The notes beneath the pieces were generated by a model. The model was not told the origin of the DNA. It searched no databases and saw only the letters and a list, made by a program, of their open reading frames with translations. Below, piece by piece: positions 1 to 46,878 of a DNA stretch of 64,000 nt (positions are counted from its first letter, which is position 1; every line of letters begins with the position of its first letter). Source of the stretch: Spirochaetia bacterium (GTDB taxonomy: Bacteria > Spirochaetota > Spirochaetia > SZUA-6 > Bin103); contig CBDBOV010000004.1 in NCBI GenBank assembly GCA_965208575.1, positions 1,184,001-1,248,000 of the forward strand, in the 5' to 3' direction. The position numbers and the translations under genes are program-made.

Positions 1-1041
1 CGCGATCACGTTGCCGACCGAACCGGTCTCGTCGAGCTTGGTCACGATCACGCTCTCGTAACCGAATGGCTCGAACTGCCGCACGATCTGCAGCAGGTCG
101 GCTCCCTTCGTGGTCGCGCTTACCACGAGTTGGGTGGTGGCGCCGTGGCCCATCGCATCGAGCACGCTCCGCATCTGTGCGATGCGCGCGTAGTCGGTGG
201 GACTGCGGCCCACGGTGTCGACGAATATGACGTCGGCGTCGCTGCCGAGGGCGATCGCCTTGCGCAACTCATCGGCGGTCTCGGCGGTGGTCACCGGAAT
301 ACGCATGATGTCGCCGTACGTTTCGATCTGCGCTCGTGCCCCGATGCGGTAGTTGTCGATGGTCACGATGCGTACCGGCGGCGCCGGCACACCGTTGCCG
401 AATCCGTGCAGCGCCGCCAGCTTGGCGATCGTGGTGGTCTTGCCGACCCCGGTCGGACCGACCAGGGTGCACACGCGCGGGCCGTCGGCCGGGGCGGGAA
501 GCTGCTGCAGCGGCGGTGCGATCTTCAGCTCCGCGGCAATCTGCCGCACCACGAACCGGTGTACCGCGCCCTGATCCCGCAGGCTGGACACCGGCAGTTC
601 GGTGCGCACCGCGTCGATCAGGCGGCCGCGCATCGGCGCCGCGAAGTCGTTGGCCGCGAGCAGCGCGCGCAACTCGGCGAGGGACGGGTGATCGTCGCGC
701 CGCACGGTCACTTCCGATCCGGGCGGAAGCGATTCGTCCAACCGCTCCCGCAACGCCGCAACCTCGCCGAGCAGCCGGGCAAGACTGGGTGCCTGCTGCG
801 CCCGCGCCGCCTCGCCGGCGACCGCGCGCGGCGCGCCGTCGTCCGCGGGCGGCGTGGTGGCGTCCGGCGGCGTGCCGTCGACGTAACCGGTAATCTCCAC
901 GGCCGGACGCGCGAACAGCCCCAGCACGCCGCCGACGCGAACCGTGCGGTGGGACTGGATGCAGGCGTCGGGGCCGTACTTCCGCATCATCTCCGCCAGC
1001 GCCGCCTGCGAGTTGGCGCCGCGTACCGTGAAATAGCGCAT
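1..1041 (-). CDS. flhF: Flagellar SRP-family GTPase FlhF (runs off window start)
   Basis: Not in ORF track; translated by hand from ATG at 1041: MRYFTVRGANSQAALAEMMRKYGPDA...GGVLGLF...VEITGY; P-loop [28 protein letters not shown]; follows flhA. Confidence 0.93.
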   Translation of the reverse strand, partial: MRYFTVRGANSQAALAEMMRKYGPDACIQSHRTVRVGGVLGLFARPAVEITGYVDGTPPDATTPPADDGAPRAVAGEAARAQQAPSLARLLGEVAALRERLDESLPPGSEVTVRRDDHPSLAELRALLAANDFAAPMRGRLIDAVRTELPVSSLRDQGAVHRFVVRQIAAELKIAPPLQQLPAPADGPRVCTLVGPTGVGKTTTIAKLAALHGFGNGVPAPPVRIVTIDNYRIGARAQIETYGDIMRIPVTTAETADELRKAIALGSDADVIFVDTVGRSPTDYARIAQMRSVLDAMGHGATTQLVVSATTKGADLLQIVRQFEPFGYESVIVTKLDETGSVGNVIA

Positions 1042-1045
1042 CCCC

Positions 1046-3013
1046 TCAGCGCTCCTCTGCCCGGCCGCCCGCGGCGAGTCCCGACACCTCCGCGAGGCGG
1101 CGCACGGAGCGGGCGGCCGCCACCTCGCTGGTCGCCAGGCACACCAGGTCGGGTATGCGGCGCTCGGTACTGCGCTTCACCAGCGGCCGCACTTCCTCGG
1201 AAGCCAACACCGCCGGCCGGCAGTCCTGCCGCGCACTCTGCCCGAGGGTGGCGGCCAACTCCTCGACCCAGCGGCCGAACTCCGCCGCGGCGCCCGGCCG
1301 GAGGTCCTGCCCCGCCTGCGCGGCCAGCAGCTCCCGCTCCAGCTCCGGCGCCAGCGTGACCACGTGCAACACGCCCTGCGCGTCGCTGTGCTGCGCGCTG
1401 ATCTGGCGGCCGAGCGAGCGCCGCACCCGGCGCACCAGGTAGTCCACGTCGCGCTGCCGGCCGGCCTCGTCCGCGAGCGTCTCCAGTATGGTTACCAGGT
1501 CGCGGATCGATACCCGTTCACGCAACAGCCCCTGCAATACCGCGCGGATCTCGCCCACCGACAGCGCCGCGGTGGCCTCTTCCACCACCGTCGGACAGCT
1601 CTCGCGCAATTCGTCGATCATCGCCCGCACCTGGTCGCGGCCGAGCAGTTCCGCCGCGTGACGCATGAGGACGGCGCGGAACTGCCCCACCAGGGTATCC
1701 ACCGTGTCGGAGCAGCCGGCACCGGGACGGCAGCGTCCGCCGCCGGCTTCGACACCGCGAATCTTGAACCGGTACGCGGTGGGCGGAAGCTGCAGGTTGT
1801 CGGTAACGTGCAGCGCCGGCACCTGCAGCCCCCAGTCGCGCGCCGCCCGGTCGCGTACGCCGCGGGCGCCGCGCAGCAGCTCGGCGCCCGCATTCCCGTC
1901 GGTCGCCGCCAGCAGACCGTACCCCAGTTCCAGCGCCAACGCCGGCGGCAGCGCAGGCGCGGCCCCGCCGGCAGGGTTCGGCGCCGCCGTTGCCCCCGCG
2001 TCGGACGTCGGCGGCGCTGCTTCGGTACCAGGATTGCGCCGGCCGACCGCGCGGCCCAGCCCCGCCACCGCGCCGGCCAGCGGCAGCAACAACCAGGGCG
2101 GGAACCCGGGCAGCAGGCCGAGCAGGGCGAGAAAGCCGGCGGTGACGTAGAATGGACGGTCGTAGCGGGCGAGCTGCAGCGCGGCGTCGATCCCGAACGG
2201 CTGGTCCGAGGCGGCGCGCGTAACGATGATGCCGGTGGCGGTGGAGACGAGCAGCGCGGGAAGCTGGGTTACCAGCCCGTCGCCGATGGTCAGTGCGACG
2301 TAGTGATGCGCCGCGGATGCCAGGTCCTCGCCGTGCACGCTGACGCCGATGATGAAGCCGCCGGCGAGATTGACCGCGGTGATGAACAATGCCACCCGCA
2401 CGTTGCCGGCCACGAACTTGGAAGCACCGTCCATGGCACCGTAGAAGTCCGCCTGGCGCTGCAACTCCTGCTGCCGGAGCCGCGCCTGCGCCTCGGTGAG
2501 CCGCCCGGAGTGGTATTCCGCGTCGATCGCCATCTGCCGGCCGGGCAGGGCGTCGAGCGTGAAGCGCGCCGCCACCTCCGCCACCCGGGTCGATCCGCGC
2601 GTAATCACCACCACCTGCACGGCGATGATGATGATGAAGATGATCAGGCCGATCACCACCCCCGCGGTGCCGGAAGATCCGACCACGAAACTGCCGAACG
2701 CGCGCACGATGCGGCCGTCGAAGGCGGCCCCCTGCGACAGGATCAGCCGCGTCGAGGAGACATTGAGCGCCAGCCCGAACACGGTGGCCAACAGCAGCAA
2801 GGTAGGGAAGCTGCTGAACTCGGCGCTGTTGCGCACACTCAGCACGACCAGGATCACCAGCAGGCTGATGCCTATGTTGAGCGCCATGCCGAGGTCGAGC
2901 AGCACGGCCGGCAGCGGAATCAGCAGCATCAGCACCGCGACGCACACGAACACGGCGACCAGCGCGTCGCCGCGCTGCAGCCAGGCGCCGGAGGGATTGC
3001 CGGCCCTGCTCAT
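1046..3013 (-). CDS. flhA: Export gate protein FlhA with an internal deletion in the cytoplasmic domain
   Basis: FSSFPTLLLLATVFGLALNVSSTRLIL, RVAEVAARFTLDALPGRQMAID, FYGAMDGASKFV, LTIGDGLVTQLPALL, ERVSIRDL; start ATG 3013 overlaps flhB stop. Confidence 0.95.
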   Translation of the reverse strand: MSRAGNPSGAWLQRGDALVAVFVCVAVLMLLIPLPAVLLDLGMALNIGISLLVILVVLSVRNSAEFSSFPTLLLLATVFGLALNVSSTRLILSQGAAFDGRIVRAFGSFVVGSSGTAGVVIGLIIFIIIIAVQVVVITRGSTRVAEVAARFTLDALPGRQMAIDAEYHSGRLTEAQARLRQQELQRQADFYGAMDGASKFVAGNVRVALFITAVNLAGGFIIGVSVHGEDLASAAHHYVALTIGDGLVTQLPALLVSTATGIIVTRAASDQPFGIDAALQLARYDRPFYVTAGFLALLGLLPGFPPWLLLPLAGAVAGLGRAVGRRNPGTEAAPPTSDAGATAAPNPAGGAAPALPPALALELGYGLLAATDGNAGAELLRGARGVRDRAARDWGLQVPALHVTDNLQLPPTAYRFKIRGVEAGGGRCRPGAGCSDTVDTLVGQFRAVLMRHAAELLGRDQVRAMIDELRESCPTVVEEATAALSVGEIRAVLQGLLRERVSIRDLVTILETLADEAGRQRDVDYLVRRVRRSLGRQISAQHSDAQGVLHVVTLAPELERELLAAQAGQDLRPGAAAEFGRWVEELAATLGQSARQDCRPAVLASEEVRPLVKRSTERRIPDLVCLATSEVAAARSVRRLAEVSGLAAGGRAEER

Positions 3014-4140
3014 TGCGGCCACCGCACGCCTCCGAAACGCGCGCCGACGCCGGGCTCGCGGCGGTCGCGGCTCGCCGCGCCGTGCGCCGCCAGCATCGCG
3101 GCCACCGCCGGCTCGTACGACCGCGGGATGGGGTCGCCGAGCGCGACGCGGCGAAACAGGGCGCCGGCCAGCGCCGCGCGTTCGATCACGGCCACGCCGC
3201 TCGACTCGGCCGCCTGCCGCATCCGCGGTGCGCTGTCGGCAGCCGCCTTGGCGACCACCACCGGCGCGGTCATGGTGTCGGGGTCCCACCGCAAGGCCAC
3301 CACGGTACGCGCCGCGTCGGCGCACACCACGTCCGCGGCCGCGACCTGCTCGGCGGCCGTGCGCGCGAGCAGTGCGCGCGTGCGGGCGCGCAACCGATCG
3401 CGCACCATCGGGTCGCCCTCCTGCAGGCGCCGTTCCTCGCGCTCCCGTGCCACCGAACGGTGCGCCCGCCGGCGGGCGCGGAAATTGCGCAACAGGTAGT
3501 CGGCCGCCGCCAGCAGCAACAGGGCACCCGCCGCCTGCACGGCCAGGCGCAGCGCCGCGCCGTACGCCGCCTCGGCCATGGCTGCGCCGGCCGCGATCGC
3601 GCGCAGCGCGGCGCCGATGTTGAGCACCGCGATCACCGCCACCCCGCCCACCTTGAGCAGTTCCCGGCCGAGGCCGATCGCGGTGTCTGCCGACCACAGC
3701 CGGCGGCCGACGCGTCCCCAACTCGGGGTGATGCGGTGCCAGCGCGGCGTCACGCTTCGCAACCTGATCGGCAAACCTTGCTGGACGAGATGTCCGGCCA
3801 CGGCGCCCGCGATCGCTGCCGCCAGCAGCGGCGCCGCCAGCCGGCCCGCATGGCCGAGCGCCGCCGGCAGCAGGCCGGCCAGCGCGGCGGCGTCGCCCGC
3901 GGCCGCCACGCGACCGAAGCACAGGCGCAGCAATTCGCCGCCGGCGGCGGCGATGGCGGGGCCGGTCAGCGCCGCCGCGCCAATCCCGGCCAGCAGGATC
4001 ACCGCCGCGGTCACCTCCGGCGAGCGCACCGGCTCGGCGGAGTCGCGGGACGCACCGGCGCGCGCAGCGGACGCGCGCAGCCGATCGTCGGCGCCGGCCC
4101 GCCCGCCGCCGACGAGAGCGGACCGGAACGCGCCGCTCAC
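3010..4140 (-). CDS. flhB: FlhB-like export gate protein, divergent, no NPTH motif
   Basis: SPEV near N-terminus, ELLKV, EGDP, ADVV...VALRWD...MTAPVVVAK, LAGALFRRVALGDPIP; lies between fliR and flhA. Confidence 0.9.
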   Translation of the reverse strand: MSGAFRSALVGGGRAGADDRLRASAARAGASRDSAEPVRSPEVTAAVILLAGIGAAALTGPAIAAAGGELLRLCFGRVAAAGDAAALAGLLPAALGHAGRLAAPLLAAAIAGAVAGHLVQQGLPIRLRSVTPRWHRITPSWGRVGRRLWSADTAIGLGRELLKVGGVAVIAVLNIGAALRAIAAGAAMAEAAYGAALRLAVQAAGALLLLAAADYLLRNFRARRRAHRSVAREREERRLQEGDPMVRDRLRARTRALLARTAAEQVAAADVVCADAARTVVALRWDPDTMTAPVVVAKAAADSAPRMRQAAESSGVAVIERAALAGALFRRVALGDPIPRSYEPAVAAMLAAHGAASRDRREPGVGARFGGVRWPQ

Positions 4141-4970
4141 GGCACCGCTCCCGCGCCCGCCGGCGGCGTGGCCGTCAGCCCGTCCAGCATCCGGCGCAGC
4201 GTGGCAAAGCCGTCGTCGAGCGCCGCCGCGGCGGCGCTCAGCAGCAATGGCAGCGTGACCAGGAGGATCACCAGGCCGGCGCCGAGCGACAACGGCAGCC
4301 CCAGCATGAGCAGGTTCATGTGCGGCGCGACGCGCGCGAGCAGGGCAAGCGCGAGTGACACCAGCAGCAGTGCCGCGAATATCGGCAGCGCGATCGCCAT
4401 GGCGGTGCCGAACAGGCGCGCAAGGCTGCCCGCCACGGTGTGCAGCAGCAACCCGGCGCCGCGGCCCGTGCCGGCCGCGAAGCTCACCACCAGGTCGGCG
4501 GCGCGCAGGGCGTGAAAGGAACCCGCCACGCCGTCGAGCATCAGCCGGTGCAGTCCGCCCACCGACAGGAACGCCATCACGGCGAGCACGTGGAACAACT
4601 GGCCCAAAAGCGGAGAACGGCCCGCGGTGAACGGATCGAGCAGCTCGACCACGCCGAACCCGACGGGCAGCGAGATGAACGCGCCGGCGGTCTGCAGGGC
4701 GGTGAACCCCAGGAGCACCAGGAAGCCGAGCAGCACACCCACGAGCGCCTCGCCGAGCAGCAGCAACGCGAACTGTACCCCGGACGCCGGTACCGGGTAG
4801 CCGCCGGCGATCACCCCGGGCAGCGCTACCACGGCGATGAACAGCGCCAGCCCCAACCGCCCCGGTTGCGGAATGGCCGCCGACGAGAACAGCGGCGCCA
4901 CCTGCATCATCGCCACCACGCGCGCCAACACCAGCAGCCCGATCCCCAGGTCATCGGCAAGCAGCCGCAT
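4137..4970 (-). CDS. fliR: Export gate protein FliR
   Basis: LARVVAMMQVAPLFSS, GEALVGVLLGF, DPF, LARVAPHMNLLMLGLPL; lies between fliQ and flhB. Confidence 0.93.
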   Translation of the reverse strand: MRLLADDLGIGLLVLARVVAMMQVAPLFSSAAIPQPGRLGLALFIAVVALPGVIAGGYPVPASGVQFALLLLGEALVGVLLGFLVLLGFTALQTAGAFISLPVGFGVVELLDPFTAGRSPLLGQLFHVLAVMAFLSVGGLHRLMLDGVAGSFHALRAADLVVSFAAGTGRGAGLLLHTVAGSLARLFGTAMAIALPIFAALLLVSLALALLARVAPHMNLLMLGLPLSLGAGLVILLVTLPLLLSAAAAALDDGFATLRRMLDGLTATPPAGAGAVP

Positions 4971-5245
4971 CACGGCCTCGCCGCCATGGCCGGGATGCTC
5001 TCGAACAACCGGGTAGTGAAGTCGATCATCGACGCCCCCAGCCACGGGCCCAACAGCAGGGCGACCCCGATGACCGCAAAGATCTTCGGCACGAAGGACA
5101 GCGTCTGCTCCTGGATCGAGGTGGCAGCCTGCACGATCGACACCACGAGCCCCACCAGCACGCTCGCCACCATCAGCGGCGCCGCCAGCACGAGGAGCTG
5201 CAGCACCGCCTCGCGCGCCAGGGTCACGACGGTACCGAGCGTCAT
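4970..5245 (-). CDS. fliQ: Export gate protein FliQ
   Basis: VGLVVSIVQAATSIQEQTLSFVPKI signature. Confidence 0.96.
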   Translation of the reverse strand: MTLGTVVTLAREAVLQLLVLAAPLMVASVLVGLVVSIVQAATSIQEQTLSFVPKIFAVIGVALLLGPWLGASMIDFTTRLFESIPAMAARP

Positions 5246-5256
5246 CGCCGCCGCCA

Positions 5257-6102
5257 TCAGCGGAAACTCTCGATCAGTTGCATGACCAGCAGATCCCAGC
5301 CATCGACCAGTACGAACAGCACCAGCTTGAACGGCAGCGAAATGAGCACCGGGGGAAGTACGATGATCCCCATCGAGATCAGCGTGGTGGCCACCACCAT
5401 GTCGATGATCACGAACGGAATGAATATGAGCACGCCTATTTTGAATGCCACGGTGAGCTCATGCAGAATGAACGCCGGGATCAGGATGTAAGTGGGCACG
5501 TCGGCGCGCGTGTTCGGCTTGGGCAGATCGCGCATGCTCATGAACAGGCGGATGTTGTCGGCGTCGTTGCCGAGCTGGCGAAACATGAATTCGCGTACCG
5601 GGGCCTGGGCGCGTTGCAACAGCTCCTGCCCGTGCAGCTCGCCGCGCGAGAACGGCTGCAGGGCGTCGCGGTTGATCGCCTCGAAGGTCGGCCACATGAT
5701 GAACGCGGTCAGAAACAGGGCTACGCCCATCAACACCTGGTTGGGCGGCATGTCGGTGAGCGAAAGCGCGCGCTTCACGAACTGCAGCACGATGGCAAGG
5801 CGCAGGAACGAGGTAGTCAGGATCACGATCGACGGCGCCAGCGACAGCACCGCGAGCAGCAGCAGCAACTGCAGCGACAGCGCCAGCTCCTGATTGGTGT
5901 ACGCGTCGCGCAGGCTGAGGTCCAGGAACGGCACGCTGCTGACGGCCGGCGCCGCGGCGGCTGCGATGCCCGCGGCCGCGGCAGCCGCCGCGTCGGGCGC
6001 GGGCGCCGGCGTCTGCGCCGCCACCGGGGCGGCGATGAGCAACGCCGCGCACAAGGCCGCGCCGGCGGCAGCACGGCGGCGCAGGATGCTAGGTAGCCGC
6101 AC
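5257..6102 (-). CDS. fliP: Export gate protein FliP
   Basis: LSLAPSIVILTTSFLR, PPNQVL, IPAFILHELTVAFKIG, ISLPFKLVLFVLVDGW; probable GTG start at 6102 after GGAGGAAGAGG; signal-peptide-like N-terminus. Confidence 0.96.
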   Translation of the reverse strand: MRLPSILRRRAAAGAALCAALLIAAPVAAQTPAPAPDAAAAAAAGIAAAAAPAVSSVPFLDLSLRDAYTNQELALSLQLLLLLAVLSLAPSIVILTTSFLRLAIVLQFVKRALSLTDMPPNQVLMGVALFLTAFIMWPTFEAINRDALQPFSRGELHGQELLQRAQAPVREFMFRQLGNDADNIRLFMSMRDLPKPNTRADVPTYILIPAFILHELTVAFKIGVLIFIPFVIIDMVVATTLISMGIIVLPPVLISLPFKLVLFVLVDGWDLLVMQLIESFR

Positions 6103-7036
6103 GGACCTCTTCCTCCACCGCCGGGGTGCGGCCCAGGCGGCGCGCGCGATCCCGTTGGCGGGGCGCCCGATCACCCAGGCGGCGCGCTCGATCCCGTTGG
6201 AGGGGCGCCCGATCCCGTTGGAGGGGCGCCCGATCCCGTTGGAGGGGCGCCCGATCCCGTTGGAGGGGCGCCCGATCCCGTTGGAGGGGCGCCCGATCCC
6301 GTTGGAGGGGTGCCCGATCCCGCTGGAGGGGCGCCCGATCACCCAGGCGGCGCGCCCGCTCCCGCTGCCGGCGCAGGAACGCGGTGTGGCCGGAGTCCGC
6401 GCTGCGCGCATCGGAGGGCGTGCCGATGCCGGCCTCGGCGAGCAGGTCGGCAAACCGGCTGCGCGCGGAAGCGCCCTGCCCGGCGGGGTGCGCCGCGAGC
6501 CGATCGAGGCGCTCGGGATCGGTGATCTCGGCCACCAGGTTTACCGCCTGGTCGCCGGCTCCCACCAGGTAGTAGCCGCCGGCCGCACGCACCAGGTGCA
6601 GGCTGCGGTTGCCGCCGAGCGAACGCGAACCGAGCACGGCGATCAGCTCGCTGTTGCCGAGCCGGCCCGCGGCGCCGCGCCGGAAGAGCCGGAACAGCAG
6701 GTAGATCGCGCCGAGCACCGCGGCAAGCACCACCACCATGCGCACGAAGTCGCCGGTCGAGACCACGCCGCCGGCCGCGGCGCCGGAGGTGCGGCCGGCC
6801 TCGGGCAGCGGCGTCGCGTCGACCGGCGGCGCGCCGGCAACCGACGCCTGTGGCTGCGGTTGCGGCTGCTGCGCGGACAACGGACACACCGCGACCAGCA
6901 GCGCGCCCGCGATCAGCAGCGCCGGAGCACCGATGGCAGAGCGCCGCGCACGCTTGGTCGAAGCGCGGGCGGCTGTCGCGTTGTACAGGTCTGTTCCCCT
7001 CCCAGGAACGCAGCCTTGCGTCCTTTCCTTCGCCAT
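6089..7036 (-). CDS. fliO: FliO (spirochaete FliZ) with a C-terminal heptad repeat expansion; start uncertain
   Basis: TM segment DFVRMVVVLAAVLGAIYLLFRLFRR then VLGSRSLGGNRSLHLVRAAGGYYLVGAGDQAVNLVAEI; directly upstream of fliP. Confidence 0.85.
   Translation of the reverse strand: MAKERTQGCVPGRGTDLYNATAARASTKRARRSAIGAPALLIAGALLVAVCPLSAQQPQPQPQASVAGAPPVDATPLPEAGRTSGAAAGGVVSTGDFVRMVVVLAAVLGAIYLLFRLFRRGAAGRLGNSELIAVLGSRSLGGNRSLHLVRAAGGYYLVGAGDQAVNLVAEITDPERLDRLAAHPAGQGASARSRFADLLAEAGIGTPSDARSADSGHTAFLRRQRERARRLGDRAPLQRDRAPLQRDRAPLQRDRAPLQRDRAPLQRDRAPLQRDRAPLQRDRARRLGDRAPRQRDRARRLGRTPAVEEEVRAAT
6147..6356. repeat. Compound 21-bp tandem repeat, 10 units (7 consecutive CGATCCCGTTGGAGGGGCGCC-type units at 6189-6335)
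   Basis: Read directly; unit A encodes DRAPLQR and unit B (CGATCACCCAGGCGGCGCGCT) encodes DRARRLG on the minus strand. Confidence 0.97.
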
Positions 7037-7044
7037 CGCCGGCG

Positions 7045-7953
7045 CTATCGGTCTCTCCCCCCGGAGTCAAGAATCTCCGTGACCCGGATGCCGTAACTGT
7101 CTTCCAATGCCACGACCCGCCCGCGCGCGACCGGCTCGCGGTTCATCTCGATCGCGACCGACTGGCCGGCGAATCGACTCATGCCGATTACCATGCCCTC
7201 GTCGAGGGCGGGCGCGCCGCCGCTGCGCAGCCCGCCGGCGCCCAGTTCAACGGTCACCATGGCATCGGCGCGAGCGGCGCGCGACGGTCGCGGCGGCGCC
7301 ACTTCGCGGGCCAGCAAGCGGTGGCCGATCGCCGCCAGACTTGCCTCCGCCACCGCCAGGTACAGTTGGCCCTCCTGTCCGCCGGCGGCCGCCGCGAAGG
7401 TGGCGCACACCAGCCGGGTGTCCGGCGCCGGCAGTTCGGTGGTGTCGGCCTGCCGCTCGAGGTACTCGAGGCGCGGTACGACGCCGCACACCGGCGCCCA
7501 CGCGCGCTGCAGGTCGGGCAGCAGCGCCGCGATGCCGCGCCGCAGCACCATGCCCTCGATCTCGCTCAAGCCGCGCTCCGGCACCATGGGTACGCCGCGC
7601 CCGCCCAGCAGCCGGTCGATCAGCAGGAATGCAAGCACCCGGTCGACGGCAAACAGCGCCGCCCCCGGCAGCGGGTCGAGCGCCACGCCCGCCAGCGCCG
7701 CCGGCGCCCACCGGGCTCGCAGTTCACTGCATGACCGGCGCTCCGCCGCGGCAAGCCGAACCCGGCACGGCGTGCGCACGAGCGTGCTGAGCGACTCGGA
7801 GGCGAAGCGCGCGAATCGGCGATGTACCGCGCTCACGATGGCGACCTGCTCGCCGGCCAGCGGCCCCGCGCCGGACGGCAAACCGCCGGGGGGCATACTG
7901 CCGGACGGCATACTGCCGGACGACCAGCGGTCATGCGGCACGCCCTCACCCAT
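7045..7953 (-). CDS. fliM: C-ring protein: FliM middle domain fused to a FliN-type SpoA domain; start uncertain
   Basis: VHRRFAR...LSTLVR, DPLPG, IDRLLGGRG, RGLSEIE, AWAPV (FliM); C-terminus VTVELG...AGQSVAIEMNREPVARGRVVALEDSYGIRVTEI (FliN-like). Confidence 0.85.
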   Translation of the reverse strand: MGEGVPHDRWSSGSMPSGSMPPGGLPSGAGPLAGEQVAIVSAVHRRFARFASESLSTLVRTPCRVRLAAAERRSCSELRARWAPAALAGVALDPLPGAALFAVDRVLAFLLIDRLLGGRGVPMVPERGLSEIEGMVLRRGIAALLPDLQRAWAPVCGVVPRLEYLERQADTTELPAPDTRLVCATFAAAAGGQEGQLYLAVAEASLAAIGHRLLAREVAPPRPSRAARADAMVTVELGAGGLRSGGAPALDEGMVIGMSRFAGQSVAIEMNREPVARGRVVALEDSYGIRVTEILDSGGRDR

Positions 7954-8080
7954 CGGCGCCCCCGGCGCCCGGCCGGCAAGGCGCGACGAATGCGCACACC
8001 GGTGGTACGCGAGCGGGGAGCAACGCAGCCAGCCGGGAGGGATCGCCGCGTTCATGCAGCCGGAGTTGCGCCATCGGCTG

Positions 8081-9718
8081 CTAGTCCTCGACCAGCCACC
8101 GGCGCAGCGCGCGCGCCGCGTCTTGCGGTCGCCGGCGGGCCAGGTGCTCGGCGCTGCGGCGCATCTGCTCCTGGTCCGCCAGGCCACCCGGTCTCCCGGT
8201 CCCGAACACCCGCGTCGCGCTGCTCAAGCGCGCCGTGCCGCCGGCGGCGCGCGCCGCCCGGCGGCGGCGCTGCCGCCGGCGCACCACCACGACCAGGGCG
8301 AGCAGCAGCAGCGCGGCGGCCGCCGCGGCGGCCGCCGGCAACATGCTCAGCAGCCATGCCTCCCGGCGCAGCAGCACGTCTTCCTGCGCGAACTGACTGC
8401 TGCGGTCGAACTGCAGATGCTCCACCGTGACCGAGTCGCCACGCTGCCGGTCCCAGCCGATGGCGTCCTGAACCAGCAGCGTCGCCTTGCGCAACTCGTC
8501 GCCGGGAACCGGGGTGTACGTGCGCCGCACGCTGCCGTCCTGGTTCAGGGCGACGCCGCCGTCGGGCCGGAACTCGGTGCGCCACACGCCGTCGAGGGCC
8601 ACGCTCACCGTGATGCGGTTGATCGCCCAGGGGCTCTCCTCGCGCACCGTGTTGCGCCGGTTCACCACCTCGCTGCGGCTCGTCGAGCGGCGCTCGTAGT
8701 GCTCGCCGGCAGCGCCGTCGCCGCTGCTCCTGGTCTCCGTCTCCTCGTCCTCGGCGACCGTGATCGAGGGCACCCGCAGCGCTTCGTCGGCGTCGGTGAG
8801 CGGATCGTCCTCGCGCAAGGCGATCGGGAAATGCTCCTCCGTGGTGGTCGACTGCGAAGACAGGTCGAGGTCGATGTCGAGGCGGACGATCTGCACCCGG
8901 TCGGCGGAGAAGATATTGCCGAGGGCGGCGACGATTTCCCGCGTGTAGCGCTGCTCCAAGCCGTACTTGGTATCCAGTTGGCGCTCCACCAGGGTCATCC
9001 GGCTGCGTCCCGAAACGCCGCCCGGATCGTTCACCTGGACGCCGCGAGGATCGAGGATCACGATGTGCTCGGCGCTCAGGCCGGCCACCGCAAACTGTAC
9101 GAGCCGCTGGATGCCGTGCACCCGATGGTGGTCGTCGAGAATCCCGGAGCCCTGGCGGGGCGTTATCACGATGGAAGCGGTGGTAGGGAGTTGATCCTCC
9201 GCGAACAGTTCGCGTTCCGGCACTACCAGGGTGACGTGGGCGGCGGCGACGTCGTCGAGCGCCTCGAGGTGCTGTTCGAGGCTGCGCGTGAGGGCGCGCT
9301 GAAGGTTGACGCTGCGTTCGAAGTCGGTGACCGAGAATCGCCCGAGGTCGAATATCGAGAACGGGTCGGTTTGCGAGGGTACCAGGTCTTCGCGAATCAG
9401 GATGCCGCGCAACCGGCGCGCCGAGTCCTGGTCGGACACGAAGATGCGGTCACCGGCGCGGATTTCGTACTCCACGCCTTCCTGATCGAGCCGGCCGGCG
9501 ATGCGCAGCAGTTGCCCGGCGTCCTCGACGGGGGCATTGATCAGTGGCACCATCCGCACACCGGCGTTCAATGGCCCGCCCTCGCGTGATGCCCCGATCA
9601 ACCCAGCGGCGACCACCGCGACGGCGAGCGCGCCGCCGAGCGACCAACGCTGCGCCCCGGTCAATCTGCCCCAAAAGCCAAACGCCTGTTGCCGCATACG
9701 CGGCAGTACGTCGAGCAT
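8081..9718 (-). CDS. fliF: MS-ring protein FliF
   Basis: DPFSIFD...TDFERSVNLQRAL, HLEALDDV, FAEDQLPTTASIVITP, GIQRLVQFAVAGL, RITVSVALDG, AIGWDRQRGDSVTVEHLQFDR, C-terminal RRWLVED; RBS GGAGGGG before ATG 9718. Confidence 0.95.
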   Translation of the reverse strand: MLDVLPRMRQQAFGFWGRLTGAQRWSLGGALAVAVVAAGLIGASREGGPLNAGVRMVPLINAPVEDAGQLLRIAGRLDQEGVEYEIRAGDRIFVSDQDSARRLRGILIREDLVPSQTDPFSIFDLGRFSVTDFERSVNLQRALTRSLEQHLEALDDVAAAHVTLVVPERELFAEDQLPTTASIVITPRQGSGILDDHHRVHGIQRLVQFAVAGLSAEHIVILDPRGVQVNDPGGVSGRSRMTLVERQLDTKYGLEQRYTREIVAALGNIFSADRVQIVRLDIDLDLSSQSTTTEEHFPIALREDDPLTDADEALRVPSITVAEDEETETRSSGDGAAGEHYERRSTSRSEVVNRRNTVREESPWAINRITVSVALDGVWRTEFRPDGGVALNQDGSVRRTYTPVPGDELRKATLLVQDAIGWDRQRGDSVTVEHLQFDRSSQFAQEDVLLRREAWLLSMLPAAAAAAAALLLLALVVVVRRRQRRRRAARAAGGTARLSSATRVFGTGRPGGLADQEQMRRSAEHLARRRPQDAARALRRWLVED

Positions 9719-9795
9719 GTTCCCCTCCCACGGCACGGATCGACTTGCCGCCGCCGCAGGGTAGACGGCCGCGGACAAGCCCTTCCGGTACCATA

Positions 9796-9824
9796 GTTAT
9801 GCGTGAGCGGCGCGCTATTGTCAA
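9796..9824 (-). promoter_or_regulatory. Sigma70-like promoter upstream of fliF
   Basis: Minus strand TTGACA (9819-9824), 17 bp, CATAAC (9796-9801); -35 is perfect, -10 is weak. Confidence 0.55.
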
Positions 9825-9859
9825 CCGCGGCCGGCACGAAAAAACGCTTTTTCGTAGCG

Positions 9860-11284
9860 CTAAAGGATGAACCGCGTCAGGTCGCGATCTTCTATTATCT
9901 TGACCAACCGTTCGTCCACGTAGCCGGTCGTAATGGTAACGGTCTGGCCCTTCAGATCGGGCGCGTTGAAGGACAGATCCTCGAGCAGATGCTCCATGAT
10001 GGTGTGCAGGCGGCGCGCACCGATGTTCTCGGTGCTGCGGTTCACTTCCGCGGCCAGTTCCGACAACCGGTCGACCGCGTCATCGGTGAATACCAGGGTC
10101 ACGTCCTCGGTGGCGAGCAGCGCCTCGTACTGGGTAATCAACGCGTTGCGCGGCTGTGTGAGAATGCGTTTGAAGTCGTCGCGACCGAGATCGTCGAGCT
10201 CGACACGAATCGGAAAGCGGCCCTGCAGTTCGGGGATCAGGTCGGATGGTTTGCTCATGTGAAACGCGCCGGCGGCAATGAACAGGACGTGCGCGGTGTC
10301 GACCACTCCCCACTTGGTGGTTACCGTACTTCCTTCGACGATCGGCAGTATGTCACGCTGTACCCCTTCACGGGAAACGTCGGCGCCGCCGCGGGTGTCC
10401 TTGGCCGCCACCTTGTCGATTTCGTCGAGGAAGATTATTCCCATCTGCTCGACGCGTTCGATCGCCAGCTCCGACACACGCTCCTTGTCGACCAGCCGGT
10501 CGATCTCCTCGGCCATCAGGATCGCGCGCGCGCGGCGGATCGGCACCTTCTTCTTTTTCTTGCGGCCACCAAACAAATTGCCAAGACTGCCGAGATTGAT
10601 GTCCATCTCCTCGAAGCTCTGACCGGAGAAGATTTCGATTGCCGGTCCGCTGCTGTCGGCGACGCTCACCTCGACCAGCTTGTCCTCCAGCTCGCCCGCC
10701 CGAAGACGCTCGCGAAACCTGTTTACCGTGCCGTTTTCCGGCGCCGCGGGAGACGCGGTGGGCGGCGGCGGCGGCGGCGCAAACCCGGCCGGCGTTGCGG
10801 CCGGCGTTGCGGCCGGTGCTGCGGCCGTCTGCGGCTTCCTGGGCTGGCCCGGCGACAGACCGGGCAGCAGCAACTCGATGAGCTGCTGTTCGACGCGATT
10901 CTCGGCCTCTTCCTGAATGCCTTCCTGCAACTCGGTCTTGACCATCGACACCGCCACCGAGGCGAGATCGCGCACCATCGACTCGACGTCGCGGCCGACA
11001 TACCCGACCTCGGTGTACTTGGTGGCCTCCACCTTGACGAACGGCGCTCGGCACAGCTTCGCCAGGCGGCGCGCAATCTCGGTTTTGCCGACACCCGTGG
11101 GACCGATCAGGATGATGTTCTTCGGCGTAACCTCATCGCGCAACTCGTCCGGCAACTTGCGCCGGCGCAGGCGATTGCGGAGCGCAATCGCAACCGCTTT
11201 CTTGGCTTGTTGCTGGCCCACGATGTAGCGGTCGAGCTCGCTCACGATCTCGGTCGGGCTGAGCTTGTCCAGGTCGATGCTCAT
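9860..11284 (-). CDS. hslU: ATP-dependent protease ATPase subunit HslU
   Basis: [73 protein letters not shown]. Confidence 0.98.
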
Positions 11285-11808
11285 GACAGCTCCTCGACGG
11301 TGATTTCTCGGTTGGTGTACACGCAAATGTCGGCCGCGATCTGCAACGAACGGACCGCGATGTCGCGTGGGCCGTGGTCGGAGCTGTCCAGGAAGGCGCG
11401 CGCGGCGGCCAGGGCGTAGTTACCCCCGGAACCGATGGCGATGGCGCCGTGATCGGGCTCCAGCACATCGCCGTTGCCGGAGATGAGCAGGGTCTTGCCG
11501 GCATCGGCCGCCAGCAGCAGCGCCTCCAGGCGACGCAGCAGGCGGTCCGATCGCCACTCCCGCGCCAGCTCCACCGACGCCCGCGTCAGGTCGCCGCCAA
11601 ATTCCTTCACCTTGCCTTCGAACCGGTCGAACAGCGTGAACGCATCCGCCGTGCCACCCGCGAACCCGACCAGGATAGCACCGTCGGCGATCGCGCGCAC
11701 CTTGCGCGCGCCGCCCTTGACGATGGTCGCGTCCATGGTCACCTGACCGTCGCCGGCCATCGCCACCCGCGTGCCGCGGCGCACGGCGACGATCGTCGTA
11801 CCGTGCAT
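11281..11808 (-). CDS. hslV: ATP-dependent protease peptidase subunit HslV
   Basis: HGTTIVAV (N-terminal Thr), [31 protein letters not shown]. Confidence 0.97.
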
Positions 11809-11855
11809 TGCCGTTCCAAGCATTGAATTGCCGTACATGGAAGTACCTGCTCCCC

Positions 11856-13043
11856 TCATTGGTCTTCTGCCCGGCCCGATTGCGCAGCGCTCGCCCGGCC
11901 GGGCTTGCCCGTGTTGCGATTCTTGCCGTCGTCCGCGCCGTGGCGGGGCGGCGGCGACTCCGATTCCGCGACCGCGCGCGGATGCGCGCCGCGGTGCACC
12001 TCCCGCAGACGCGCCAGACTGGTGTGGGTATAGACCTGCGTGGTAGAGATGCTTGCGTGCCCGAGCAGCTCCTGCACGACACGCACGTTGGCCCCGGCGT
12101 CCAGCAGGTGGGTCGCGAACGAGTGGCGCAGGCTGTGCGGGGTCACGCGCTTGTCGATTCCGGCTGCCGCCGTGGCGGCGCTGACGATGCGGCGCGCGGC
12201 GCGGTCGCCAAGGCGCCCGCCGCGGCGACCCAGAAACAGTGCGTGGCGAGCCACCGGCGCGGGTGCCGAAGGCGGCTTGCTCCAGGCGCGCAACAGGGCG
12301 GCGCGCAGCGGCAGGTAGTGCTGCAGCAGCGTGCGGCACGCGGCGCCGAAGAACACGACCCGCTCCTTGTTGCCCTTGCCCAACACGCGCGCGCGGCCCG
12401 CGTCAGGCTCGACGTCCGCGACGTCGAGGCCGACCGCTTCCGACACGCGGCAGCCGCTGCCATACAGGAACTCCAGCAGAAGCACGTCGCGCAGGTTCCA
12501 GAAGTCGTCCTCTGCGCCGTCCGTGGTGTCGGTGGTGTCGGTGGTGTCGGTGGTGTCGGCGGCGCTGGCGTGCGCGCCGCCCGCGTCGATCAGTCTCTGC
12601 GCCTCGGCGGCGAACAGAAAGCCCGGCAGGCGCTTGCCGGCTTTCAGGCCGCGCTGGCCCTGCGCGGGGTTGGCGTCCGGCGCCGCCGGCGTGCCTTCCA
12701 GATAGCGATAGAAGCCGCGCACGGCCGACACCGCGCGGTTGACGCTGGCCGCGCTTTGCCCGGCGCGCGTCAAATGGCCCACGAAACCGCGAACCTGGCG
12801 CGGCGTCGCCTGTGCCGCGGGCACCCCGACGCTGGCCAGGTACCCAAGGTAGCGCGCCAGGTCGCCGCGATAGGCGCGCACGGTCTGCGCGGAGTAGCCG
12901 CGTACCACGGCAAGGTAGCTCAGGTAACGCTGCACGCCGCCGTCGGCAGGCGCGGGCGCCGCCGGCTGCGGCCGCGCCGCGGCTGCGGCGGCGTTCGGGT
13001 CGGTGGCCGCCGGCGGCTCTGTCGGTGCCCGGTAACTCTTCAT
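11856..13043 (-). CDS. xerC: Tyrosine recombinase XerC-like
   Basis: [47 protein letters not shown]; upstream of hslV. Confidence 0.88.
12523..12558. repeat. 9-bp tandem repeat GTGGTGTCG x4 inside xerC (encodes DTT repeats)
   Basis: Read directly; in frame. Confidence 0.9.
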
Positions 13044-13045
13044 CC

Positions 13046-14125
13046 TCACCTTTCGGTTCCGTCGATTCCGCGATCGTCGCCGGCAGCGGCGATGCCGCCG
13101 TGCGCCGGTGCCGCCCGCCCGGCCTGCTCGGCGGCAAACATCCTTGCCAGCCACGTTCCCGCGGCACGCTGCCGGGGCGGCGGCGCCAGCGTACGCAGCC
13201 GCCCGCCGCCGCCGAGCGGATGCGGCACGCCGGCCTCGCGCAACACGTCGCCGGCATCGGTCGCCGGCAGCGCCCCCTCCTCGACCAACTGCGCACCGCC
13301 CGCGGCACGCGGCCCGTCCAGACCGTCCGCCGCCACCAGCACGTCGCGGCCCTGGTCGGCCGCGCAACGCGCCGTGATGAGAGCCCCCGACCGGGCCGGC
13401 GCCTCGACCACGACCACCGCACGGCTCAGACCCGCCACGATGCGGTTGCGCTGGGGGAAATGGTGCGCGAGCGGCGCCACTCCGGGTGGGAACTCGCTCA
13501 CCAGACAGCCGCTCCGCAGGATCCGCATTGCCACCTCCCGGCTGCTCGCGGGGTAGATCCGGTCGATGCCGCAACCGAGCACCGCGACCGTGGCGCACCC
13601 CTCACCCCGCCAGCCGGCCAGACTGCCGCGGTGGACCTCCAGGTCGATCCCGCGCGCCAGACCCGAAACCGACGTGACCCCGGCACGCGCCAAGTCGAAA
13701 CCGAACGCATACGCGGTCCATCGGCCGCGACCGGTGGGCTGCCGCGTGCCCACCACCGACACCAGCGGCGCCGGCGGCGGCGGCAGGCGGCCGCCGCGAT
13801 GAAAGAGTACTACCGGTGGATCGAAAATCTCCCGCAGGATCCGCGGGTAGCGGGGCTCCCACAGAAAAGTGCACTGCCACACCTCTCGGGTCAAGCGTTC
13901 GGCATCGGCGCGGGCGCGCTCCAGCCATGTGGACGGCGAGAGCGTCGGCTTGCGCAGCCGCCGCCCCAGCAGCGCCGCCAGCCGCTCCGCCGACAGGTCG
14001 GCGAACTCGGCCAGCCGACAGCGGCGCAGCACCGTGCAGCGCTCGATCGGCCGCAGGAAAGACATTCTCGCCAGCGCCAGCGCAAGCAGCCGGCGCGCAC
14101 CAGGTTCTCGTTCTGCCCATCTCAC
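13046..14125 (-). CDS. dprA: DNA processing protein DprA
   Basis: [60 protein letters not shown]. Confidence 0.96.
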
Positions 14126-14157
14126 GCCTCATATAACGGAATCGGAACCGTCGCGCT

Positions 14158-43395: not shown

Positions 43396-43740
43396 ATTTC
43401 TTGACGCCGACCGTCTGGCTCACGGATATACGGGCGTCAGAGACGCTCAGAAGTCATTTGCCGAGCCGGGTGATGCCGCCCACGCCGCGAGCGGCGCGCA
43501 GGTTGCTGCGGAGCGCACGGAGCGAGGCGCCCCGGACAACTGCACCGAGGTGCGTTGCCCGGGGCAGGGTCATGACAATTCCCCACCGCCGGGACGGGGT
43601 AGGCGACGAGGTTGCGACACCGGAGCCGTCGGGATCGAACGGGGCGGAGGAGATGCTGTACCCCGCTGACGGACGGAGGGCGTAGCCCGACCGGAGTCAG
43701 CCGGCGCGGTGCCGTGGAGGCCACCGTGGACGACGCCGAG

Positions 43741-46702: not shown

Positions 46703-46878
46703 CTCCTCCGGAACCTCCTCACGTCCCTCGGAGAGGCTCCAACCGGACCCGGAAGGTCCAGCCCGTTCGGTTAGATTTTTAGATGAGGCATGCTTTCGCT
46801 ACGGTTAGATTTTCGATGAGTCAATGCGCGCTGTTGACGCGGGCGGCGCTCGGCGCGATGCTGGACGGCGAGACCGAC

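Follow-up and report, generated by a model that had tools for sequence, protein, structure and literature searches.

The window, a 64-kb stretch from the genome of an uncultured and probably sponge-dwelling spirochaete, opens with a reduced flagellar locus. All genes of the locus lie on the minus strand, in the order xerC-hslV-hslU, then fliF, then fliM/N-fliO-P-Q-R-flhB-flhA-flhF. Pfam assigned the minus-strand reading frames to SRP54/FlhF, FHIPEP, Bac_export_2, Bac_export_1, FliP, FliO, FliM with FliMN_C, YscJ_FliF with its C-terminal domain, HslU, HslV and XerC, and none of the 12 plus-strand frames gave a Pfam match. The features are listed below.

1..1041, minus: flhF, 5' part; the full gene of 412 aa passes the window start to G000:C4:1183803
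1046..3013, minus: flhA, 655 aa (Pfam FHIPEP)
3010..4140, minus: flhB, 376 aa (Pfam Bac_export_2)
4137..4970, minus: fliR, 277 aa (Pfam Bac_export_1, PDB FliR alignment)
4970..5257, minus: fliQ, 95 aa (57% identical to FliQ of the relative G037)
5257..6102, minus: fliP, 281 aa, N-terminus signal-peptide-like (Pfam FliP, PDB alignment)
6089..7036, minus: fliO, 315 aa (Pfam FliO)
7045..7953, minus: fliM/N fusion, about 302 aa, start uncertain with alternatives at 8055 and 7911 (Pfam FliM and FliMN_C)
8081..9718, minus: fliF, MS-ring protein with C-terminal tail, 545 aa (Pfam YscJ_FliF and YscJ_FliF_C)
9796..9824, minus: promoter-like TTGACA-N17-CATAAC in the hslU-fliF spacer (from sequence)
9843..9861, minus: terminator-like hairpin (consensus match only)
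9860..11284, minus: hslU, upstream neighbour and synteny anchor (Pfam AAA_2; 66% identical to G037 HslU)
11281..11829, minus: hslV, synteny anchor (Pfam Proteasome; 68% identical to G037 HslV)
11973..12935, minus: xerC/codV-like recombinase, synteny anchor (Pfam Phage_integrase, tblastn)
13046-14125: dprA, next after xerC (Pfam)

An earlier note on this DNA had given the gene order from hslU to flhF, which Pfam and tblastn confirm, but on the minus strand. Start-codon assignment leaves 141 bp between hslU and fliF and 127 bp between fliF and fliM, close to the 140 and 130 bp it had estimated. As it had also described, no frame at the locus is interrupted, and the stop codon of one gene overlaps the start of the next at fliO/fliP, fliP/fliQ, fliQ/fliR, fliR/flhB and flhB/flhA. 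The block from fliF to flhF stands as described, but it is not the whole unit, which runs past the window's edge into a FliA/WhiG sigma-factor gene, directly 3' of flhF on the same strand, and a DUF6115-like gene.

The TTGACA promoter claimed for fliF was found at 9824-9819 (minus strand), followed by 17 nt and CATAAC; a generic promoter scanner missed it because of the weak -10. All seven core-genus loci examined carry GTTGACA, a spacer of 17 or 18 nt and an A/T-rich CATAAC-like hexamer before fliF (exactly CATAAC or CATAAA in six, GTTAAC in G010), and this holds even for one locus with a 4.7-kb insertion upstream. Transcription of the fliF unit appears to start from a sigma-70-like promoter of its own. 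Directly 3' of the hslU stop codon there is a hairpin, and the number of such sites in the region is at chance level.

Genes missing from the locus and the genome

A flagellated relative of the same order, G037, has the full spirochaete superoperon, laid out as hslU-flgB-flgC-fliE-fliF-fliG-fliH-fliI-fliJ-?-fliK-flgD-flgE-motA-motB-fliM-fliN/Y-fliO and onwards. This verifies the genes said to lie normally between hslU and fliF and between fliF and fliM; fliL, named among them, is not annotated in G037. Comparison with G037 and the congeners shows that both gaps are real deletions, and misassembly does not account for them, as the same layout occurs in seven assemblies and contigs from a separate study's run (X3 records 14 and 15) span both junctions.

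The genome is 6.5 Mb in size, 95% complete and not closed. Family and tblastn searches of it found no rod, hook, filament, FliH/I/J, MotAB or CheA/W genes, and the rod/hook N-domain family had no match anywhere in it. When the 38 superoperon proteins of G037 were used as tblastn queries against the whole genome, matches were obtained for fliF, G, M(N), O, P, Q, R, flhB, A, F, fliA and the DUF6115-like gene, and none for flgB, C, fliE, H, I, J, K, flgD, E, motA, B, fapA, cheW or cheA; flhG gave weak ParA-like matches only. Two MotA_ExbB matches were rejected as stator genes, being TolQ/ExbB with TolR and TonB partners. The genome holds no second flhA, a check that the earlier note had proposed, and it encodes a homologue of the anti-sigma factor FlgM at G000:C2:30741-31034. 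The missing genes other than fliG are absent from the genome, so that the proposed removal of rod, hook, stator and ATPase genes extends genome-wide, but the loss of fliG does not stand, the gene having been relocated.

Pruned and retained parts of the C ring and export gate

A full three-domain canonical fliG lies at a separate locus (G000:C5). Its product passes the NCBIfam fliG equivalog cut-off and is 47-62% identical to the operon FliG of G037 and 25-30% to the paralogue. Because fliG has been relocated rather than lost, the C ring consists of FliG plus a FliM-FliN fusion, which refutes the idea of a one-gene C ring. In the fusion the FliM middle domain runs straight into a FliN-type SpoA domain: residues 67-249 match FliM and 266-333 match FliN structures in the PDB, and with NCBIfam the fliM model falls below its cut-off and the fliN domain is matched. 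The CheY-binding peptides of FliM and FliN are lost, including the N-terminal one of the fusion. The FliG EHPQ motif, the FliM GGXG motif and the FliF C-tail are retained, and FliF is 41% identical to its G037 counterpart over its full length. The fusion occurs in the window's subclade, and there are congeners with separate fliM and fliN. FliM is 32% identical to that of G037, against 78% for flagellated relatives, which we count against a working export gate.

What has been pruned is regulatory and docking apparatus: the FlhB NPTH switch, the FliM CheY-binding peptide, subdomain 2 (SD2) of FlhA and the FliP methionine loop. In FlhB, DAAR stands in place of the NPTH autocleavage/switch motif (NPEH/NPTH in the same register of the PDB alignment), and the motif is lost in all ten core congeners and present in G037. 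The AP and LA.AL columns of FlhB_C, which we take to be the early-substrate pocket, are conserved in all congeners. FlhA matches FHIPEP in two pieces, 2-405 and 450-654, since its cytoplasmic domain lacks the roughly 42-46 residues of SD2 (residues ~437-490 or ~448-493 of the PDB references); its transmembrane (TM) domain is conserved, with the charged motifs kept. Alignments with PDB references and congeners thus bear out the motif losses claimed for FlhB, the FliM N-terminus and FlhA.

The membrane cores of FliP, FliQ and FlhA had been called conserved, which is right for FlhA TM and for FliQ, where the E and K aligned with the FliQ salt bridge are both retained, but not for FliP, whose methionine loop reads I-I-V instead of M-I/M-M in an alignment with 11 flagellated relatives. 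The same I-I-V loop is found in 9/9 congeners and 3/3 sister-genus loci, a second point against a working export gate. According to a preprint, the first and last Met of this loop are reportedly 99% conserved, and its triple replacement nearly abolishes export in Salmonella (bioRxiv 10.1101/2020.11.25.397760). FliO ends in a C-terminal tail encoded by a 21-bp tandem repeat of 9.5 copies at 6142-6340 (TRF), giving the heptad DRAPLQR. FlhF is an SRP-type GTPase with P-loop, DTVGR and TKLDE motifs; it is 39% identical to G037 FlhF and scores 168.5 bits against the NCBIfam FlhF models, for which the cut-off is 174.

Conservation and selection among relatives

We compared 41 genomes from the core genus, a sister genus and other families. 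FHIPEP occurs in 9/10 congeners, 3/13 sister-genus genomes and 17/17 genomes from other families, while the rod, flagellin and T3SS-ATPase families occur in 1/10, 0/13 and 17/17. The sole congener with rod and flagellin is the outlier G002, which has the full set; the sole ATPase match among congeners is one of 22 bits in G010, resembling weak second matches in flagellated genomes. CheW is found in none of 23 genomes within the family and in 15/17 others. The same two deletion junctions are present in all seven congeners whose examined locus spans hslU to fliA, and FliF was also found in the three remaining congeners. G009 and G010 have a shortened FlhA C domain.

None of 120 orthologue segments carries a premature stop. 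Pairwise dN/dS over eight pairs (dS 0.1-0.8) was 0.10-0.18 for fliP, 0.14-0.29 for fliQ, 0.18-0.28 for fliR, 0.13-0.29 for flhA, 0.21-0.28 for fliF, 0.12-0.27 for fliG and 0.15-0.28 for flhF, with 0.06-0.16 for the reference hslU. Within flhA the values were 0.15-0.27 for the TM and 0.24-0.33 for the C domain, and all three FliG domains are constrained, as is the FliN SpoA domain. The dN/dS check proposed earlier therefore points to purifying selection on the retained genes, intact across congeners. flhB, fliO and fliM are relaxed (0.26-0.54), which again counts against a working export gate. Identity to G037, compared with that of 10 flagellated spirochaetes, was 67 v 64% for FliP, 59 v 59% for FliQ and 40 v 42% for FlhF.

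In the three sister-genus species with a gate the gene set is even smaller. FlhF and FliM/N are absent from this version, FlhB_C is deleted with the flhA overlap kept, and in exactly these 3/13 genomes FliG is cut to its N and M domains. The locus tree suggests that this reduction was independent. The other 10/13 species have lost the whole gate and kept fliA and FlgM, so this lineage can do without the gate, as can FlgM and sigma-28. Common to both reduced lineages are FliF, FliG_N(M), FliO/P/Q/R, FlhB_TM and FlhA_TM, almost wholly membrane-embedded. Unlinked genes are co-retained: fliG and, in G005, also fliF.

A flagellum-derived membrane complex and its counterparts

From what was observed directly (gene content, synteny, absences, intactness, purifying selection, a conserved promoter and domain-precise pruning), the locus encodes a membrane complex of flagellar origin that is non-motile and maintained by selection, and an export function is predicted for it. 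Such a complex can neither rotate nor assemble an axial structure, since it lacks rod, hook, filament, stators, FliH/I/J ATPase and chemotaxis input. Since the external and moving parts are lost and the ring and gate are under selection, the leftover membrane core probably has a new job. We give a probability of about 0.5 to its being a maintained derivative of the spirochaete periplasmic flagellum that acts as a single-class periplasmic export gate, and beyond the gene content we infer assembly, energisation, export and cargo. A FliF MS ring, a reduced C ring of FliG and FliM-FliN fusion, a FliO-assisted gate of FliPQR, FlhB and FlhA, and the placement GTPase FlhF would still assemble in the inner membrane. 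The gate would be driven by proton-motive force, independently of an ATPase, would be unable to switch substrate class, and would open to the periplasm alone, which is where spirochaetes normally build their flagella. Its non-flagellar cargo would form a single small class. The only candidate that could be named is the retained FlgM, against which it counts that Salmonella with uncleavable FlhB exports early substrates and not late ones such as FlgM. Against a working gate it also counts that the parts classically used for docking and sorting are being lost differently by lineage and that there is no ATPase.

Those lineage-specific losses of substrate-docking parts could also belong to a complex kept for a job other than export, its pore shut, whether as a landmark or scaffold embedded in the membrane, as an ion path through FlhA or as a platform for membrane remodelling, for which the FliOPQR-FlhBA 'CORE', a proposed nanotube seed in Bacillus, would be the model. 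The parts shared by both reduced lineages are almost wholly membrane-embedded, the FliP loop has lost both highly conserved Met and yet is hydrophobic, which could suit a sealed pore, and the window's genus still has FlhF and a full C ring. However, FlhB_C and FlhA_C are still under purifying selection where kept, the constraint on FliP and FliQ equals that of working flagella and fits a working pore at least equally, and the common function cannot be that of a landmark, as the sister genus's version lacks FlhF and FliM/N. To our knowledge the nanotube role comes from Bacillus and E. coli work only and is disputed, and we know of no nanotube evidence in spirochaetes. Both CORE-only genomes and such a role have been put forward in print (PMC6456723; bioRxiv 10.64898/2026.07.27.740770), and overall we regard a non-export job as rather unlikely.

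The graded series from the full set in G002 through the reduced core genus to the smaller set in 3/13 sister-genus species and nothing in ten, together with signs of ongoing erosion (the fusion in the window's subclade, the FlhA truncation in G009 and G010, the relaxed flhB, fliO and fliM), might instead suggest a relic in slow decay after a shift to host-associated life, its remaining genes merely the last to go and without present function. We consider this improbable: every gene has a dN/dS well under 1 in all eight pairs, the 120 segments are free of premature stops, the non-coding promoter is conserved, unlinked fliG and, in G005, unlinked fliF are co-retained, and FliP and FliQ evolve no more quickly than they do in flagellated lineages. 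All losses are moreover in-frame and at domain borders, as when FlhB_C is deleted but the overlap with flhA preserved, FliG ends exactly behind its M domain, or FliM_M is fused to FliN. An operon split, with the missing genes elsewhere, or chimeric junctions might be suspected because fliG does sit elsewhere and the genome is incomplete. This is scarcely credible and for practical purposes already refuted, as none of the other missing genes was found in the whole genome, they are also missing in nine congeners besides G002 (four of these are 95-98% complete chromosomes in one contig), and the junctions are identical between assemblies and independently bridged.

The maintained export gate that we favour has counterparts. 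Its retained genes are orthologous to and collinear with the spirochaete flgB/fla superoperon (G037; Borrelia/Treponema), with xerC-hslV-hslU upstream and flhF...fliA downstream. It differs in that flgB-flgC-fliE and fliG...motB are gone from the locus (13 genes in G037), as are flhG, fapA and the che genes, and in having lost the FlhB switch, the FliM/FliN CheY-binding peptides, FlhA SD2 and the FliP Met loop.

Publications already describe flagellar remnants in bacteria without flagella (Buchnera, Lysobacter, "CORE-only" genomes), which makes the idea of repurposing less new. In Buchnera the genes for rod, hook and export ATPase are retained and hook-basal bodies are made, whereas the locus here is without any axial parts or ATPase. 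The likeness is that of a non-motile, host-associated bacterium keeping basal-body and type III export genes without flagellin, for which a transport role is described as suspected and unproven in Buchnera aphidicola (PMC8109811). 'CORE-only' genomes are described as keeping FliO/P/Q/R, FlhB and FlhA without the rest of the organelle (PMC6456723); the sister genus's set comes close, but FliF and FliG_N always accompany the gate here, and the window's genus adds the C ring and FlhF. Among the sources consulted, the best experimental precedent for repurposing is the FT3SS-like system of a bacterium without flagella, Lysobacter enzymogenes OH11, in which FlhA, FlhB and FliP/Q/R are reported to be expressed and needed for non-flagellar protein secretion and twitching (PMC7688988). 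OH11 is there described as retaining FliI, rod (flgC, flgG), hook (flgE, flgD) and L/P rings (PMC7688988), all of which are missing from the present system, along with the FlhB NPTH motif. Finally, the locus matches the first step proposed for the route to the ancestral non-flagellar T3SS, the Myxococcales intermediate, as outlined by Abby & Rocha (PMC3459982), in which motility genes were lost and the translocation core was kept; here the origin is independent and recent, within a spirochaete family, there is no ATPase, and the genes are orthologous to flagellar rather than Sct genes.

Gene order and missing parts

The flagellar genes lie on the minus strand of the window, which has a G+C content of 70% and comes from contig C4 (1184001–1248000) of a 6.5 Mb genome in 6 contigs that is 95% complete. 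At this G+C content gene calling based on GC3 is too noisy, so gene identity rests on family matches; plus-strand ORFs were rejected as genes of the locus, a Pfam family being found in 0 of 12 tried. In the direction of transcription the order is dprA, a xerC/codV-like recombinase, hslV, hslU, fliF, a gene with FliM and FliN domains, fliO, fliP, fliQ, fliR, flhB, flhA and flhF. Measured from start codons, 141 bp separate hslU from fliF and 127 bp separate fliF from fliM, while most other borders overlap. Beyond the window, flhF (412 aa) is followed by the gene of a 270-aa FliA/WhiG sigma factor, then by one for a small membrane protein with weak likeness to DUF6115 and two for M23/LysM peptidases.

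The textbook spirochaete superoperon described in the earlier note is the right reference for this order, as seen in G037, a flagellated relative with 42% G+C. Its locus reads dprA-topA-xerC-hslV-hslU-flgB-flgC-fliE-fliF-fliG-fliH-fliI-fliJ-?-fliK-flgD-flgE-motA-motB-fliM-fliN/Y-fliO-P-Q-R-flhB-flhA-flhF-flhG-?-fliA-fapA-...-cheW-cheA-cheY. The export gate is complete in the window, with FliP, FliR, FlhB, FlhA and FliO above the Pfam cut-off and FliQ 57% identical to that of G037. The MS ring and C ring set is also present in the genome by Pfam and NCBIfam, as FliF, FliG (318.7 bits against an equivalog cut-off of 226.7) and a FliM_M domain fused to a FliN SpoA domain, the fused FliM scoring 81, below its equivalog cut-off of 219.6. 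On gene order and on PDB and NCBIfam comparison an injectisome identity was rejected: the genes are orthologous to those of the order's flagellar superoperon and collinear with them, and the top matches in both databases are to flagellar proteins.

To find the missing parts we compared 38 G037 proteins with the whole genome by tblastn and added family searches. Matches were obtained for fliF, fliG, fliM (with fliN), fliO, fliP, fliQ, fliR, flhB, flhA, flhF, fliA and the DUF6115-like gene. None were found in the genome for flgB, flgC, fliE, fliH, fliJ, fliK, flgD, flgE, motA, motB, fapA, cheW or cheA, and flhG gave only weak ParA-like matches. Family searches of the same genome gave 0 matches to the rod/hook N-domain (PF00460), flagellin (PF00669), the T3SS ATPase C-domain (PF18269) and the CheW family, and FHIPEP matched a single gene, so there is no second flhA. 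Two sets of candidates were set aside. The fliI matches are V/F-type ATPase subunits of about 30% identity, one set adjoining a V-ATPase subunit I gene, and two PF01618 (MotA_ExbB) matches, considered as stator MotA/MotB, belong to TolQ/ExbB proteins, whose partners are TolR and TonB. The absence of axial, stator and ATPase genes claimed from the locus thus extends to the whole genome. The accompanying claim of a one-gene C ring without fliG is refuted, as a full three-domain fliG stands alone on contig C5. It was considered as the spirochaete paralogue and rejected on identity (25–30% to the paralogue, 47–62% to the G037 operon FliG), and on this sequence comparison it is the canonical motor FliG.

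Selection and domain-level losses

We found 0 premature stops in 120 orthologue segments; at three apparent internal stops the alignment had run on past the natural end of the gene. dN/dS was calculated by the Nei-Gojobori method for 8 species pairs with dS of 0.1–0.8, a few gene-pair values of dS lying above 1. The ratios are 0.10–0.18 for fliP, 0.14–0.29 for fliQ, 0.18–0.28 for fliR, 0.13–0.29 for flhA, 0.21–0.28 for fliF, 0.12–0.27 for fliG, 0.15–0.28 for flhF and 0.03–0.13 for fliA, beside 0.06–0.16 and 0.07–0.13 for the controls hslU and hslV. Relaxed yet non-neutral values were obtained for flhB (0.26–0.54), fliO (0.35–0.48) and fliM/N (0.29–0.50), and by domain the remaining cytoplasmic parts are likewise constrained. 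The earlier note had read the locus as more like repurposing than random decay, and purifying selection on genes that are intact across congeners agrees with this. When similarity to G037 is compared between the window's lineage and 10 flagellated spirochaetes, FliP (67 v 64%), FliQ (59 v 59%), FlhF (40 v 42%) and FliA (74 v 74%) are alike, while FliM (32 v 78%), FlhB (36 v 52%) and FlhA (49 v 65%) evolve faster.

The losses are confined to particular motifs and domains. The NPTH autocleavage motif of FlhB is gone from 10/10 core congeners with the C domain kept, and three PDB alignments of the window's protein show DAAR at the position of NP(T/E)H. The CheY-binding LSQDEID peptide of G037 FliM and FliN/Y is absent from every congener. 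In four congener species fliM and a short fliN are still two genes; in the window's subclade (G000, the window's genome, with G001, G006 and G007) the FliM middle domain is joined straight to the FliN SpoA domain. Window FlhA lacks about 42–46 residues of subdomain 2, corresponding in PDB alignments to reference positions ~437–490 or ~448–493, and its C domain is cut short in the congeners G009 and G010. Subdomain 2 is the part of FlhA concerned with chaperone docking. Among retained motifs are FliG EHPQ, four of five FliG torque-helix charges, FliM GGXG, the FlhA transmembrane motifs, the FliF C-tail, and the FliQ E and K residues aligned with the FliQ salt bridge.

The methionine loop of FliP reads I-I-V in 9/9 congeners and in 3/3 sister-genus loci, against M-I-M or M-M-M in 11/11 flagellated relatives. 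According to bioRxiv 10.1101/2020.11.25.397760, on Salmonella FliP, conservation of the first and last methionines is 99% and export is almost lost after triple replacements. The fliP of G002, the flagellated outlier of the window's genus, was sought to date the change and was not found in its 81%-complete assembly.

The fliO gene contains a tandem repeat (window 6142–6340, minus strand; 21 bp x 9.5 copies). It gives the C-terminal tail of FliO an array of DRAPLQR heptads, and in the fliP frame, which overlaps upstream, it reads GRPSNGI. In public contigs the array is thinly covered, with small indels just outside it at 6034 and 6426.

Distribution among relatives and neighbouring genes

A survey of 41 genomes places the reduction within one family. 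FlhA, rod, flagellin, FliG and ATPase occur in 17/17 genomes from the order's remaining families, and CheW in 15/17. The other species of the window's genus have a divergent FlhA (9/10) and a FliG_C match (10/10), and one of the ten has rod and flagellin. This exception is G002 (510 contigs), which carries hslU-flgB-flgC on a contig of 66% G+C and therefore keeps the ancestral state. Both deletion junctions are alike in all seven congeners whose fetched locus covers hslU to fliA; in the remaining three FliF lies apart, some 120 kb away in G005 and on different contigs in the others. Misassembly, raised as a risk in the earlier note, finds no support, both junctions being bridged by contigs of another study's run (X3 records 14 and 15).

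Before fliF a GTTGACA-N17/18 element with a CATAAC-like hexamer (GTTAAC in G010) is kept in 7/7 loci, including that of G009, whose hslU–fliF spacer carries a 4.7-kb insertion. This insertion (locus L026, G009:C1) is unannotated and lies upstream of the promoter, with promoter and fliF intact behind it. In locus L075 (G002:C79) of the flagellated outlier a GCCGATA motif resembling a sigma-28 -10 element precedes flgB, and the TTGACA-type element before fliF in reduced species suggests promoter replacement alongside the deletion.

FlhA occurs in 3/13 species of the sister genus, and rod, flagellin, FliG_C, ATPase and CheW in 0/13. The three gate-bearing species (G011, G012 and G015) have the order hslU-fliF-fliO-P-Q-R-flhB-flhA-fliA, with a full-length FlhA, and neither FliM/N nor an FlhF orthologue was found in them, SRP-GTPase matches being sub-cut-off only. 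Their FliF lacks an internal segment of about 50–110 residues (least in G011) and keeps its C-tail. In G011 and G012 FlhB stops short of the NPTH site, as does the G015 match, at position 284 of 393; the flhA junction is preserved. Their FliG is unlinked, ends exactly after the M domain and has lost EHPQ. This truncated FliG is present in exactly the 3/13 species with a gate, which are kin, so the co-occurrence does not represent three independent events.

A maximum likelihood tree of dprA, xerC, hslV and hslU (1427 columns, from junction-carrying contigs) groups G002 with the core genus at a bootstrap of 100 and leaves the sister genus outside. An AU test (LG+F+G4) rejects a clade of core and sister genus without G002 (p = 5e-5). 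The tree topology and the AU rejection suggest that the flagellum was reduced to this core twice, independently, with the caveats that only one outgroup was used, that the sister genus sits on a long branch, that the model was site-homogeneous and that G002 fliP is not assembled.

The sigma factor has a wider range than the gate. It matches the WhiG equivalog at 399 bits (cut-off 343), and an FlgM homologue (E 5e-16) completes a predicted sigma-28-type/anti-sigma pair. Both fliA and FlgM are kept in nearly all 13 sister-genus species, and FliA/WhiG occurs in 22/23 family genomes, including 10 sister-genus genomes in which no flagellar gene was found; judged by this distribution, its target must be a non-flagellar one. 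A genome-wide scan with a sigma-28-type promoter consensus gave 4 matches, about the level of chance, and 0 on the window's contig against 0–1 in shuffles. Conservation within the cluster is highest for FliA/WhiG (G000:C4:1182798–1183610), which is 73% identical to its counterpart in a relative of 42% G+C and has a dN/dS of 0.03–0.13.

The gene after fliA has no match to the DUF6115 Pfam model, whose sole match in the genome (21.5 bits) lies elsewhere, on C5, and no mention of DUF6115 was found in the literature searched. A possible link to Bacillus SwrB is a resemblance of position only. SwrB is a gate activator encoded after sigD, as described in PMC4526659. The two M23 peptidase/LysM genes that follow (G000:C4 ~1180000–1182300; 12006–14313 of locus L018, minus) are on the strand of the cluster and may have a part in cell division or in remodelling of the envelope.

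Runs containing the stretch bear sponge or marine metagenome labels, and among 22 runs none was of RNA. Other genes of the window include:

60560–62005, plus strand, ankyrin-repeat protein, 481 aa
50213–51760, minus strand, sulfatase
56820–58301, plus strand, sulfatase
41126–41974, 46783–47739 and 58434–59069, three PhyH-family dioxygenases
43612–45285, plus strand, Transposase_29 gene, between metabolic genes
45428–46702, minus strand, rve transposase/integrase gene, between metabolic genes

Ankyrin-repeat, sulfatase and PhyH content is typical of sponge symbionts and agrees with the run labels.

Function and comparison with known systems

We conclude firmly that these genes encode a predicted non-motile, flagellum-derived inner-membrane complex maintained by selection. 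Whether the gate exports protein is more evenly balanced, and we place the probability at about 0.5. Constraint on the pore proteins equals that in functioning flagella, and the C domains of FlhB and FlhA are constrained wherever retained. The proton motive force can drive export without the ATPase, according to PMC4230889, and Lysobacter provides a precedent. Against export stand the lost methionine loop, the eroding docking parts and the dispensability of the system in 10/13 sister-genus species. A membrane role other than export we consider possible, if on the unlikely side. Functionless decay, for which the relaxed flhB, fliO and fliM/N would speak, is quite improbable, the orthologue segments being free of premature stops. 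A split operon would need the missing genes elsewhere, and fliG alone was found so placed; that or an assembly artefact, given the bridged junctions, is hardly credible.

More tentatively, and in our view doubtfully, the periplasmic flagellum would have been cut to the same core in each of two sister lineages of spirochaetes living with sponges, independently of one another, which would point to a new class of inner-membrane machine whose selected activity is not fast hierarchical export. This core would comprise the MS ring, that part of FliG which binds FliF, and FliOPQR-FlhB(TM)-FlhA. The FlhB switch would have been lost by substitution in one lineage and by deletion in the other, with the FliP gasket changed to I-I-V in both. 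In host-associated life such a core could serve as a gated channel, translocate a single cargo slowly or act as an organelle that shapes membranes.

Within one family these genomes form a natural dissection series, from a full flagellum through ring, C ring and gate to ring and gate and then nothing, in which domain-precise deletions reveal the parts still protected by selection. This is the most extreme documented case we found of a gate without ATPase, rod or switch, and so could be a test bed for export driven by the proton motive force only, for the role of the FliP methionine loop and for what FliF and FliG may do apart from motility. Should the gate prove to export proteins in a sponge symbiont, envelope factors or those for interaction with the host would have a new route.

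Remnants of flagella in bacteria that have none have been published before, in Buchnera (PMC8109811), in Lysobacter (PMC7688988), in CORE-only genomes (PMC6456723), in "a dozen species" (PMC3459982) and in a further case termed "half a motor". PMC3459982 also proposes such loss with retention of the translocation core as the first step in the origin of the injectisome. Our searches found no paper on this spirochaete lineage or on a gate without rod, ATPase and switch; supplementary tables of the remnant papers may list similar genomes. Compared with a functional flagellum, the window's system has the MS and C ring genes but is without axial rod, hook and filament proteins and MotA/MotB. Compared with the flagellar export apparatus its gate is complete, but it lacks NPTH, the methionine loop, FliH/FliI/FliJ and an intact FlhA subdomain 2. 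Reduced systems of the Buchnera and Lysobacter type keep rod/hook and the FliI ATPase beside the gate, whereas the window's system has neither.
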